Source: Phycisphaerales bacterium (lineage in GTDB: Bacteria > Planctomycetota > Phycisphaerae > SM23-33 > FEN-1343). From it: a DNA stretch of 64,000 nucleotides. Positions 18,531-64,000 of the stretch are shown here, in pieces (position 1 is the first letter of the stretch; each line of letters begins with the position of its first letter). The position numbers were made by a program, and so were the translations under genes. The DNA lies in contig PMYD01000082.1 in the NCBI GenBank assembly GCA_003171335.1, forward strand, positions 2,518 to 66,517, read 5' to 3'. The notes under the pieces are model-generated. The model saw only the letters and a program-made list of their open reading frames with translations. It was not told the origin of the DNA and searched no databases.

Positions 18531-18983
18531 TCAACCCCACATCGTCTCGGGATCAAACGGAATGTGGTGCCGTTTCAGGAACGCAATGAATTCCTCTTCA
18601 TACGTCACCTTACGGTGATGCTCCGCCTGGCCGGCAATGTATGATTCCACATCCGGCCGAATGGAATCCGCCACCGTGAACGCGGCGTAACCCTGTTGCC
18701 ACTTGAAACGATCCTTGGGCTTGAGCGTTCGATTCACCCATCCGGTCGTGAGGCTCTTGAGCTTCCCCACCGCCGTCGGAACGCCTATCGGCGGCCTCAA
18801 CGAGATCAGCGCGTGCAGGTGGTTTTCCGTGCCGCCCAGGGCCAGGGCGCAGCCGAGTTCCTTCTTGGCAACGCCGCCGGCATATTCGTACAGGCGGTGC
18901 TGAAAATCCCGCGTAATGAGCGGCCGGCGGTCCTTCGTGCTGAAGATGACGTGATAGAGCAGGTGCGTGAATGTGTGGCTCAT
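18531..18983 (-). mobile_element. tnpA: IS200/IS605-family HUH (Y1) tyrosine transposase, REP-associated
   Basis: YHVIFSTKDR, NHLH (HUH), FKWQQGY, YIAGQAEHH; flanked by inverted REPs; no tnpB. Confidence 0.9.
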
Positions 18984-20887: not shown

Positions 20888-22156
20888 ATGTCATTAGAAT
20901 CGCTGATGTTAAAGCACATTCGCCTGGATGGCGACACGCAGACGCGTGTGAAGATGTCGGACAAGCTGATTGATGAATACGCCCGCCAGATGGCGGAAGG
21001 GGACGACTTTCCGCCCCTGGCGGTCATGTTCGATGGTGTGGACCACTGGCTGTACGACGGTTTTCACCGGTACTACGCCGCCGTGCAGCTTGGCCGCGAG
21101 CGATTGCCGGTCGAGGTGAAGGAGGGCACGCGGGAGGATGCCATCTGGGAGTCGCTGGGGGCAAATAAGACACACGGACTGAGGTTCACCTCAAAGGACA
21201 AGGCCAAGGCGATACGTAAGGCCTTGGAAAATTGGACAGATAGGACGGATGGCTACATCGCCAAGCACATAGGAGTTGACGAGAAGACCGTGAAGAAATA
21301 TCATCTGGAGCGGATTTCACGTCCGGAAATTCCGGACGTGAACCCCCGCCCAGATGCCTCAACTGAGGAATTTCCGCAGTTCGAGTTCGATGGAAGGCCC
21401 TCACGTCCGGGAATTCCGGACGTGAACCGCCGGCCAAATGCCTCAACTGAGGAATTTCCGCAGTTCGCGGTCGATGGAAGGCCTTCACGTCCGGAAATTC
21501 CGGACGTGGACCCCCGCCCAAGTACCTCAACTGAGGAATTTCCGCAGTTGGCGGTCGATGGAAGGCCTTCACGTCCGGAATTTCCGGACGTGACTCACGC
21601 GGAGAAATCCCCAACTGCGGAAATTCCGCAGTTGACCCGGCGTCTTGGGGCTGACGGCAAGTGGTACAAGCCTCGAAACAAACCCATCATCGGCCCGGAT
21701 CGCCGGCCGGCGCCGCCCGAGCCGGGGGCTCTGGCCAAGGAGCCGCCCGAGCGGGACATGCTTGGCCGGCCGTTTGAAGGCCCGCACGCCGAGCGGATGC
21801 GGCAGGTGTTCTCGTTTCAGCCGCGGATTGCCCAGCAGGTGCATCTCTTGGGCAGCCTGGGCGGTTTCATGCGCGACATGGCCGGCGATGGGCACCTAGT
21901 GTACGGGAAGATCGACCTGCCGCGTTTTCACGCTGGGCTCCGCCGGGCCATGAGCGCCCTCATGCGGATCTGCCCGCACATCATCTGCCCGCGCTGCCGC
22001 GGAGCCGGCTGCCAAGTCTGCCGCGGCTGGGGCTGGATTGATCAATGGGGCTGGCTCTCCTACGGCCGGCGGGGGCGAGTTGGTCCAGCTCAAGAAAACG
22101 GCGAACACGAAGACCACGAAGATCACAAAGAGCACAAAGAAAGGCCAAGAGAATGA
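20888..22156 (+). CDS. ParB/Srx N-terminal domain + HTH protein with internal palindromic repeat array and C-terminal CxxCxGxG zinc finger
   Basis: TQTR..IDEYA..FPPL..LYDGFHRYYAA..AN.THG; HTH TDGYIAKHIGVDEKTVKKY; RRLGADGKWY; CPRCRGAGCQVCRGWG. Confidence 0.85.
   Translation: MSLESLMLKHIRLDGDTQTRVKMSDKLIDEYARQMAEGDDFPPLAVMFDGVDHWLYDGFHRYYAAVQLGRERLPVEVKEGTREDAIWESLGANKTHGLRFTSKDKAKAIRKALENWTDRTDGYIAKHIGVDEKTVKKYHLERISRPEIPDVNPRPDASTEEFPQFEFDGRPSRPGIPDVNRRPNASTEEFPQFAVDGRPSRPEIPDVDPRPSTSTEEFPQLAVDGRPSRPEFPDVTHAEKSPTAEIPQLTRRLGADGKWYKPRNKPIIGPDRRPAPPEPGALAKEPPERDMLGRPFEGPHAERMRQVFSFQPRIAQQVHLLGSLGGFMRDMAGDGHLVYGKIDLPRFHAGLRRAMSALMRICPHIICPRCRGAGCQVCRGWGWIDQWGWLSYGRRGRVGPAQENGEHEDHEDHKEHKERPRE
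21316..21634. repeat. Eight ~23-27-bp palindromes at 42-bp spacing (84-bp tandem unit x4) inside the ParB-like gene
   Basis: Alternating CACGTCCGGAAATTCCGGACGTG and CAACTG(A/C)GGAAWTTCCGCAGTT. Confidence 0.95.
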
Positions 22157-58476: not shown

Positions 58477-58608
58477 AGACACAAAGATCACAAAGGCCAC
58501 GAAGGTCACAAAGCAAGATCAGGGTAAAGGCAACACTGGCGTCCTTCTTCGTCTTTGCACTATTTGTCTCTCTTTGTGCCCTTTGTGATCTTTGTGGTCT
58601 TTGTGTTC
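58477..58608. repeat. CACAAAG-family inverted repeat between iorA and iorB
   Basis: Arms match 2905-3000. Confidence 0.85.
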
Positions 58609-60216: not shown

Positions 60217-60236
60217 GCTTGAAAATGTAACGGGAA

Positions 60237-60291
60237 AAATCCCAAATCCCAAATCCCAAATCCCAAACAAATCCCAAGCTCCAAATTCCAA
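60237..60291. repeat. Single arm of the AAATCCC heptamer element
   Basis: (AAATCCC)3 AAAC AAATCCC AAGCTCC AAATTCC. Confidence 0.8.
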
Positions 60292-60300
60292 ACGAAACAA

Positions 60301-62401: not shown

Positions 62402-63256
62402 ATGCTAGGCTGCCATCTTTCCATCGCCGGGGGCGTACACAACGCCCTGCTGGAGGCCATCAGCCTGGGCACGGACTGCGTGCAGATTTTTACGCAGAAC
62501 CAGCGGCAGTGGGCCGGTCGGGCGCTTTCGCAAGATGAACTGGCTAACTGGCAGGCGGCCCGCCGCCAGGCGAAACAGGCCGCGATTATCAGTCACGGCA
62601 GCTATCTCCTGAACCTCGCCAGCCCCGATTGGCCGCTGCGCCGCCGGTCGATCGCGCTTCTGGAGCAGGAGCTGGCCCGCTGCAAAGCGCTGGGGATTTC
62701 GGCGGCCGTGGTGCATCCCGGCTCGCACATGGGCGCGGGACTGAGCGAGGGGCTGCGACGAGTGGCGCGTTCGCTGGACCTGCTGCATAAACGCTGTACT
62801 AGAAACCCCGTCATGGTGGGCCTGGAAAACACCGCCGGCCAGGGCGACGGCGTGGGCTGGCGGCTGGAACAGCTTGCCTGGGTGCTGGAACACGTTGATT
62901 CCCCCGCCCGCGTGGGCATCTGCCTCGACACGGCTCACCTGCTGGCGGCCGGCTACGACCTCACCAGCGGCGACAGCGCCGAAAAGGTGCTGGAGGAGGT
63001 CGATCGCGTGATCGGTTTGGCGCGAGTGCTGGCCGTGCACCTGAACGATTCGAAGGCGCCCCTGGGCAGCCGCGTGGACCGCCACGAGCATATCGGGCAC
63101 GGCCACGTTTCGTTGGCGGCCTTCGCCGCCTTCATCAACCATCCGCGCCTGCGCTGTGTGCCCCAGGTGCTCGAGACGCCCAAAGAAACCGCCCCCGACG
63201 GCCGGCCGTGGGACTTGGTCAATCTGCTCACCCTGCGGTCGCTCCAGCGGGCCTGA
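62402..63256 (+). CDS. nfo: Endonuclease IV
   Basis: GCHLSIAGG, QIFT, HGSYLLNLAS, HPGSH, ENTAGQG, DTAH, HLNDSK, DRHEHIG, ETP. Confidence 0.95.
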   Translation: MLGCHLSIAGGVHNALLEAISLGTDCVQIFTQNQRQWAGRALSQDELANWQAARRQAKQAAIISHGSYLLNLASPDWPLRRRSIALLEQELARCKALGISAAVVHPGSHMGAGLSEGLRRVARSLDLLHKRCTRNPVMVGLENTAGQGDGVGWRLEQLAWVLEHVDSPARVGICLDTAHLLAAGYDLTSGDSAEKVLEEVDRVIGLARVLAVHLNDSKAPLGSRVDRHEHIGHGHVSLAAFAAFINHPRLRCVPQVLETPKETAPDGRPWDLVNLLTLRSLQRA

Positions 63257-63392
63257 GAACGTGTATGAAAACCGGCTCCGATCGTGGCACGGCCATCTTG
63301 GCGGTGAATCCGGCCGTTTCTTGCGCCGCCACGGGCGAGACGCCCGTGGGACTCATGGGCGGGACGCCCATGCCACGTTTCCATACACATTC
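63256..63392. repeat. REP cluster CACGGGCGAGACGCCCGTG with AGAACGTGTATGAAAA / TTTCCATACACATTCT flanks
   Basis: Matches 6769-6922, including the right flank. Confidence 0.85.
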
Positions 63393-63451
63393 TGAGTGGC
63401 GAGTAAGCTCCTTTGCTGCCGTAATCACGTCCTGCCGTCAAAAAAAGACTC

Positions 63452-63479
63452 TTGACAGCCACGAAAATGCGGATAAAAT
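63452..63479 (+). promoter_or_regulatory. Near-consensus sigma70 promoter
   Basis: TTGACA-N16-TAAAAT. Confidence 0.6.
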
Positions 63480-63724
63480 CTTACTAACTATCCGTAGCTA
63501 GGCCTGTCTATAGGATAAGCAATGGTGCTGGCCTGGAAATTGAATGCTTCTGAAAGCCGAGTAGGTTAGACTTGCCAAGCTGGCTGCGCGACCAGAATAG
63601 TTCTTCCGGTCCGCCAGATGCTTCGAGATATATGGTAAGATATTATTACATAAGTAATTATGCGATCTTAGCCGCAGGCGGGGCGAGTTGCGCCCCCCGG
63701 TGGTCCAAGCCAATGCTTTTGGCC

Positions 63725-63975
63725 TCAACTGGTGAAATTCACCAGTTGACTGCCTTCCGGCCGTGCGAGGGGTCGGATTCCGGCCCTTACGCTCCAGCCC
63801 CAACTGAGGAATTTCCTCAGTTGAGGAAAATTCGGGCAGGCGAGGGGTTCGGGTCCAGCCCTTACGCCCAGGCCTCGACTGGTGAATTTCACCAGTTGAG
63901 CACCATCCGGACAGGCGAAAGGTGCAATTCCAGCCCTTACGCTCCGGCCCCAACTGAGGAATTTCCTCAGTTGAA
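63725..63975. repeat. Array of four 23-bp palindromes at 75-bp period (may continue beyond the window)
   Basis: CAACTGGTGAAWTTCACCAGTTG alternating with CAACTGAGGAATTTCCTCAGTTG; centres 63737, 63812, 63887, 63962. Confidence 0.92.
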
Positions 63976-64000
63976 CACTATCGGGCCGGGCTTACCACGC

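Follow-up and report, generated by a model that had tools for sequence, protein, structure and literature searches.

The gap between an AP endonuclease gene and mnmE in a Phycisphaerales bacterium (GCA_003171335.1) contains four evenly spaced palindromes behind a promoter-like site. This raised the question of what the palindromes are and whether they have any role in the expression of mnmE. The window that we analysed was a stretch of 64,000 nt (contig PMYD01000082.1, positions 2,518 to 66,517 of the forward strand); its source genome (G000, 91% complete) is compared below with a genome of the same genus (G001), and C-numbers are contigs of the source genome. An earlier note on the window had described four 23-bp palindromes at 75-bp spacing with alternating GGT/ACC and GAG/CTC arms, and the coordinates confirmed this. 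The strand-neutral palindromes were of the GGT type at positions 63726 to 63748 and 63876 to 63898 (the third unit, in which one outer position was unpaired) and of the GAG type at positions 63801 to 63823 and 63951 to 63973 (the last unit). The starts at 63726, 63801, 63876, and 63951 gave a period of exactly 75 bp. The linkers, said to be related yet diverged, indeed shared 63 to 73% pairwise identity. When we followed the array beyond the window, as had been suggested, no fifth unit was found; the contig continued into an intact mnmE that began at window-equivalent position 64096. The upstream neighbour was an intact, nfo-like AP endonuclease 2 family gene (positions 62402 to 63256, + strand), which we label nfo.

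Logan contigs from public peat metagenome runs, one of which is perhaps the source sample itself, covered the locus. A contig from run X1 matched 624 nt from the start of the ORF through the array into mnmE, and a contig from run X3 matched a 580-nt segment that began at the promoter and reached the third palindrome, both with zero differences. Because promoter, array, and mnmE junction were matched exactly, an assembly artefact was ruled out.

The array was preceded by a sigma70-type promoter-like site, TTGACA-16-TAAAAT, with an upstream A-tract (positions 63452 to 63479, + strand). As had been claimed, it was a strong match (11 of 12 consensus positions); two promoter-like sites were observed in 4 kb, compared to 0.8 in shuffled sequence. 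The AT-richer leader of about 250 bp was also found, with a GC content of 50% versus 64% for the genome. The leader proper (positions 63480 to 63631, + strand) was variable in length among related copies, its frame was not conserved, and no shared RNA structure was detected in it. Its best-conserved part in alignments was a motif at the predicted start site, CTAACTATCC ... TGTCT (positions 63484 to 63509, + strand). The array was followed by the start of a trailer with an CACCTGCCAGA-like motif that crossed the window end (positions 63974 to 64000, + strand) and that by eye was similar in the copies on C18, C24, and C58. Between the array and mnmE we found neither another promoter-like site nor a T-tract terminator. 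A hairpin doublet of a different kind occupied the first 140 nt of the nfo-mnmE gap (positions 63257 to 63396); it was present in dozens of copies in the genome and was unrelated to the 23-bp family, and similar doublets also preceded the C18 copy. Short-unit repeat hairpin and heptamer runs were seen in intergenic gaps elsewhere in the window (positions 58479 to 58606 and 60229 to 60292).

The promoter, leader, and array are parts of one multicopy cassette that occurs at 16 loci in the source genome and mostly faces the next gene. The leader alone retrieved other loci of this genome by BLAST, and a profile of the promoter-proximal 105 nt gave 16 significant matches among the 22 listed. All 16 had three to seven palindromes downstream, the first of which lay 202 to 269 nt after the -10 hexamer in 15 cassettes and 663 nt after it in one; the promoter-like site was homologous in these sister cassettes. 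Ten copies could be aligned over the full leader with a mean identity of 59%; the hexamers and CTAAC...TGTC were nearly invariant, and the tree of the ten leaders was star-like. Fifteen of the 16 cassettes stood just ahead of the next gene in the same orientation (baseline 0.57, p=0.0015), and six had a further promoter-like site between the array and that gene. The genes behind the cassettes included mnmE, ruvA, gyrA, trigger factor (tig), S21 (rpsU), acetolactate synthase (ilvB), pyruvate:ferredoxin oxidoreductase (nifJ), membrane pyrophosphatase, an ECF sigma factor, and an HtrA/DegP-type protease; they shared no common pathway. A second promoter family, TGG-TAnnnT-AGCC, was seen ahead of other arrays (L070 to L074, on C33, C45, C147, and C167) and by eye resembled the promoters of the ParB-like genes on C44, C159, and C168 that are described below.

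The stretch in the window is an insertion between nfo and mnmE that is absent from relatives. The gap between the two genes measures 839 nt in the source genome but 131 nt in G001 and roughly 115 nt in the relative G002; it is about 1.2 kb long in G005 and G006 and contains no match to the cassette there. Among the genomes searched, the cassette is known from one species. A search of 300 genomes of the class returned no full-length match and five short matches of 26 to 32 nt. The cassette profiles had no match in 36 G001 regions, a less strict promoter pattern matched G001 once, and a scan of genome contigs gave four weak, unrelated matches. Two viral matches to the promoter pattern both lacked palindromes, and the cassette was not found at 160 loci with homologues of the ParB-like proteins. 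In the literature searched, mostly the main texts of papers available outside subscription, we found no description of the cassette or its site. No enzyme that could mobilise the cassette was found, and no clear terminal repeats or target duplications were seen: the check for such features of an IS or MITE gave only scattered 7- to 9-nt matches in ten copies, whose ends were not delimited. Seven DNA runs yielded no empty-site allele.

The earlier note had called the array non-coding and had pointed out that a TAG at positions 63978 to 63980 interrupted the minus-strand frame. That codon was present, but the plus strand was open for 155 codons through the array (positions 63632 to 64000, with the stop at 64097 to 64099, past the window, overlapping the mnmE start as ATGA), which made the claim doubtful. 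The frame opened with an RTGnTAnnnT motif (positions 63632 to 63641, + strand), a putative start codon or the extended -10 of a second promoter. The distance from this motif to the first palindrome codon was 96 nt in eight of ten copies, 84 nt in one, and 95 nt (out of frame) in the C34 copy. In the 32 codons ahead of the first palindrome, the eight gap-free copies (C34 and C157 excluded) had no stops in this frame versus 20 and 17 in the other two (shuffle P=0.002). A separate stop count that included the C39 copy, which joined the frame-keeping group after inspection of its translation, gave 4, 20, and 19. In the ten frame-keeping copies, 35 of 36 spacings were divisible by three, as were 9 of the 10 distinct spacing values (p=4e-4); in the other six cassettes, which as a group showed no such conservation of the frame, the figure was 9 of 22. 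Past the last palindrome, 8 of 10 copies had no stop in this frame until at most 35 nt short of the next start, and two of these were in-frame fusions (P=3e-5; C39 was outside this test). The amino acids were not kept, with pN/pS values of 1.06 (N-terminal block) and 0.89 (linkers), and no homologue or family was found for the product. We infer from this pattern that selection may have favoured translation across the insert. An AT-rich imperfect dyad with a TTAT-N3-ATAA core lay over the putative start (positions 63633 to 63665) and by eye was not conserved in sister cassettes.

The palindromes belonged to a family that extended beyond the cassettes. The exact pattern occurred in 123 copies in the source genome and 3 in G001, and it was absent from 39 other relatives and from 300 genomes drawn from the class. 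A looser search of the source genome found 323 sites in 118 clusters, nearly all intergenic. Perfect palindromes with an odd arrangement (11+1+11) numbered 293 and those with an even arrangement 16, which was far above chance, and pairing, which was 0.91 at position 11, was down to 0.37 by position 12, consistent with a fixed 11+1+11 design. The arm alternation in the window had been read as compensatory change; the alternation stood, but local compensation did not, as the two arms represented two genome-wide types (68 and 33 strong copies). G001 contained 84 sites with the same outer arms, compared to 7 for a reversed control, and many different cores. Among arrays of at least three sites in the source genome, 26 of 56 had a strong promoter-like site facing them within 440 nt and 30 of 56 had none.

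Several further features of the family were observed. At G001 loci L258 to L293, 23-bp palindromes with varied cores formed tight mosaics, some overlapping by two bases, and many G001 cores matched no ParB-like gene found in that genome. A second abundant type with the inner arm CCGACA (42 strong copies, seen on C4, C7, C20, C82, C141, C143, C146, C165, and C168) often abutted the main type and matched no resident paralog. The nuoM gene at L309 (G000:C165:44669-47005) was extended in frame at its C-terminal end by a long run of palindrome units spaced 93 bp apart.

The note had linked the array to a ParB-like gene and suggested a search for paralogs. The gene in the window (positions 20888 to 22156, + strand) encodes a ParB-like helix-turn-helix (HTH) protein, a putative binding protein, and is one of ten paralogs in the source genome. 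All ten carried at least one palindrome in frame behind the HTH. Within the gene in the window, positions 21310 to 21634 held an in-frame array of two alternating palindrome types in 42-bp steps. A model of the N-terminal part had a pLDDT of 89 and its best Foldseek matches were Noc, ParB, and KorB; PF02195 was above cut-off for the C45 and C159 paralogs. The sequence GFHR, an instance of the GxxR nucleotide-binding motif defined in a survey of the ParB-CTPase fold (PMC12704722), was invariant in 11 of 11 aligned sequences; according to that survey, the nucleotide choice of such proteins is not predictable from sequence, and its main text contains neither "palindrom" nor "StrR". The LG(R/K)GL ParA-binding motif was absent from the paralogs and present in a canonical ParB on C112. 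The C-terminal domain was helical with four cysteines and gave generic helical structure matches only, and Atlas structure matches of the proteins were phage proteins without names. The family comprised 5,724 clusters at E<=1e-30. C-terminal remnants of paralogs without the N-terminal domain were seen at C132:5500-6500 and C139:47000-47170.

Homologues from outside the genome were sampled as the best 80 of 586 viral loci and the best 80 of 574 metagenome loci, which gave 102 distinct rows with a recognisable HTH. A palindrome lay just downstream of the HTH in 78 of these rows, compared to 4 of 102 control stretches. Site similarity followed the similarity of the recognition helix (partial r 0.61, permutation maximum 0.23, a significance that is overstated among kin), and its correlation with domain identity was 0.04. 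The signal peaked at four variable helix residues (0.24 to 0.49) and was at most 0.20 elsewhere and at most 0.18 at third codon bases. Mere linkage was disfavoured because little signal came from third codon bases or from residues closer to the site. In two low-GC parAB loci (L329 and L330) whose ParB has the helix DNKTV, an identical GAG-type 23-mer was found before parA and inside parB. In these operons (L329:1-1631 and L330:1501-3023), the ParB gene held its own probable site and more copies lay before parA. The array in the window alternated the site type found inside DHNTV-helix paralogs (GGT) with that found inside the SNKTV-helix paralog on C45 (GAG); the DHNTV group includes the paralog on C150, and the C159 paralog has the helix SHMMV. 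Taken together, the in-gene palindromes, the tracking of site by helix, and the identical site in parAB loci with a matching helix suggested that the 23-bp palindromes are probably ParB-type binding sites. The same covariation and in-gene palindromes favoured the DNA site array that the earlier note had offered as one of two outcomes. Its idea that the array was amplified from a ParB gene segment found support for the 23-bp palindrome only, as no ParB coding remnant was detected in any frame of the 16 cassettes (best E 0.22).

Several known systems come close. The KorB/OB system of plasmid RK2 (PMC11790492) has in common with the system described here a ParB-fold HTH protein, to which our structure search returned a match, dispersed palindromic sites, and promoters distant from the sites; KorB is described there as acting on promoters from up to 1.5 kb away. 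In contrast to KorB, the present system is chromosomal, with ten paralogs that have different helices, sites inside their own genes, and tandem site arrays within a repeated promoter cassette, and no KorA-like partner was identified. A candidate start-site box for such a partner was enriched (20/44 versus 12/387), but it had been defined from the cassettes and also occurred before ordinary genes, and it was rejected. In the case of BisD/bisS of ICEclc, as described in the parts of PMC12409273 consulted, a ParB-like protein is loaded at an inverted repeat of 11 bp whose centre is 1 bp, the same geometry as here; the sites lie inside genes, and the protein acts on distant promoters, an action that we propose here as well. 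The two systems differ in sequence and in number (two sites on one ICE versus hundreds on a chromosome), and BisD has an activator domain, whereas the source-genome proteins end in the four-cysteine domain without a clear structural match.

The StrR operator, given in PMC8306873 as GTTCGActG(N)11CagTcGAAc, provided a third parallel. Its inner 23-bp frame, CRACTG-N11-CAGTYG, was present in 4 of 4 units of the array, and some plasmid relatives of the ParB-like protein are annotated "streptomycin biosynthesis regulator", a likeness of annotation alone. Unlike the operator as given in that source, the units here lack the outer GTT/AAC arms, pairing falling beyond 11 bp; their inner 11 nt are palindromic and track the helix, and they lie downstream of the promoter. 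Plasmid and prophage parABS (L329 and L330) shares the identical GAG-type site, an xKTV helix, and sites inside parB and before parA, but the source-genome paralogs lack the ParA-binding motif that the canonical ParB of that genome has, and their sites are spread over the whole chromosome.

REP/BIME elements with their RAYT enzymes, as covered in the portion of PMC3733652 used here, resemble the palindromes in that they are hundreds of short extragenic palindromes, clustered and lineage-specific, with a few in coding frames. Against this likeness, the GTAG and CGTC end tags were found in 3 and 2 of the 323 sites and in none of the four units. The sequence GGAG was found near 82 of the 323 sites and by eye was mostly the end of a neighbouring palindrome type. 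No RAYT flanked by repeats was found in the 91% complete genome, where none of seven Y1 transposase matches lay within 600 bp of a 23-bp site. The palindromes also differ from REP/BIME in their fixed length with a variable core, their own promoter and leader, and a matched DNA-binding protein family. The window itself contains a Y1 (IS200/IS605-type) transposase-like gene (positions 18531 to 18983, - strand) flanked by its own repeated hairpins. By analogy, the palindromes may work like a KorB, BisD, or StrR site system and are distributed like REP/BIME elements.

We propose that the ParB-like HTH proteins of this genome, which derive from phages, are likely to dock at the cassette palindromes and that they would thereby control the cassette promoter and the next gene, here mnmE. 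We give this explanation as a whole a probability of about 0.5, and every step past the sequence anatomy is inferential. The cassette promoter would fire and its transcript would most likely run through the array into mnmE, because neither a T-tract terminator nor a second promoter-like site follows the array. Translation across a transcript prevents Rho polarity; ribosomes that cross the array and hand over to mnmE would in this way avoid it. ParB-like proteins would bind the array sites, possibly loading as NTP-dependent clamps, and would act on the promoter 250 to 500 bp away, as KorB and BisD do, to repress or tune it and hence the gene behind it. Each of the two site types in the window would attract its own group of paralogs. 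A comparable arrangement was seen in the ParB-like genes (a promoter-like site, a leader of 160 to 190 nt, and a frame that contains the site), which may point to autoregulation. Several findings count against the explanation: the many strong sites of types absent from resident paralogs, the G001 sites that have no cassette, the 30 of 56 arrays that have no promoter within 440 nt, the six cassettes in which the frame is not kept, the lack of a shared pathway among the downstream genes, the promoter-like sites behind six of the arrays, and a start motif that could equally be an extended -10.

The main rival is that the cassette is a tolerated selfish or neutral dispersed element of the REP/BIME kind. 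Its palindromes would derive from ParB genes and may be bound, but they would exert no useful regulation, and the promoter, orientation, and frame would survive by keeping downstream essential genes expressed. We consider this reading somewhat unlikely. Co-orientation and the open frame are also expected from a merely tolerated insertion, and the confinement to one species among those searched, the star-like tree (as after a burst), the unrelated downstream genes, and a pN/pS of about 1 also fit it. So do the promoter-less clusters, the in-frame array within the nuoM tail, and the many orphan site types (199 of 447 strong sites were of types absent from every resident paralog of the 91% complete genome). 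On the other hand, the promoter hexamers and start-site motif are nearly invariant against the 59% mean identity of the aligned leader block, near-perfect palindromes persist between diverged linkers, and no REP tag, linked RAYT, or clear TIR or TSD was found.

An improbable alternative is that the arrays are decoys or tethers, which would soak up the ParB-like proteins that phages or mobile elements bring in or would serve as parS-like anchors, with the promoter incidental or helping to move loaded clamps. Cores seen in phage genes recur among the palindromes of both the source genome and G001, the family of proteins is very large, and the identical site flanks parA in L329 and L330. Yet the arrays mostly use resident-paralog types, which resident paralogs would occupy; a decoy needs neither a conserved promoter nor a reading frame; and the resident paralogs lack the ParA-binding motif.

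Two readings in which the product of the cassette is what matters fared worse. The first, which we regard as very improbable, is that the cassettes encode related small repeat proteins, in which T-x-E-F-x-Q-L recurs every 25 residues, and express them from their own promoter. The start position and frame were conserved in 9 of 10 copies, but the pN/pS values and the lack of any homologue or family oppose it, the palindrome itself forces a repeated peptide, and the ends are variable, with two fusions and one frameshift. The second, a non-coding hairpin-array RNA, possibly processed to units of about 75 nt, had been the other outcome offered by the earlier note and is doubtful in the extreme. 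A promoter and leader precede the array, 68 of 74 sites had a T at the centre when read in the direction of the promoter, and transcript folding was strong (z -9.3), although this is expected from palindromes alone. The ten aligned leaders showed no consensus structure, no Rfam match or T-tract terminator was found, the frame is conserved, and the site tracks a DNA-recognition helix.

Finally, the decayed tail of an adjacent ParB-like pseudogene, raised by the earlier note as the case against its own reading, can be dismissed: the palindrome peptide does resemble the segment behind the HTH, but both neighbours are intact, no ParB remnant was found in any frame, and 16 loci carry the unit together with its promoter. 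Other candidates were also rejected. For an origin of replication, the gap contained three DnaA-box-like matches with up to two mismatches to the DnaA box consensus, and the window showed no clear skew switch. Searches of the stretch for a tRNA or Rfam family gave no match, and a structured leader was set aside in view of the ten aligned leaders. A CRISPR array was disfavoured in that the linkers are alike and related between loci instead of being unique spacers, again with no Rfam match.

If the docking-site explanation is true, core promoters would have been rewired recently and across the genome, and this by a repeated element tied to a huge, uncharacterised family of phage proteins, although the breadth of the finding is limited in that the cassette was found in one species only. 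A more ambitious version, which we put forward tentatively and consider rather unlikely as a whole, is that a domesticated phage ParB-like family with swappable helices provides combinatorial regulation. A portable promoter with mixed operators would stand ahead of mnmE, gyrA, ruvA, ilvB, nifJ, tig, and rpsU; a frame free of sequence constraint would keep translation coupled; and ten paralogs would read different site codes to control housekeeping genes from a distance. Even a selfish cassette would represent an unexplained mode of spread, namely that of a repeat with no linked transposase whose frame stays open although the protein is not conserved. Because each ParB-like gene carries its own probable target, the family amounts to a natural table of helix-to-site pairs, which is directly testable and gives a target for orphan ParB-fold proteins.
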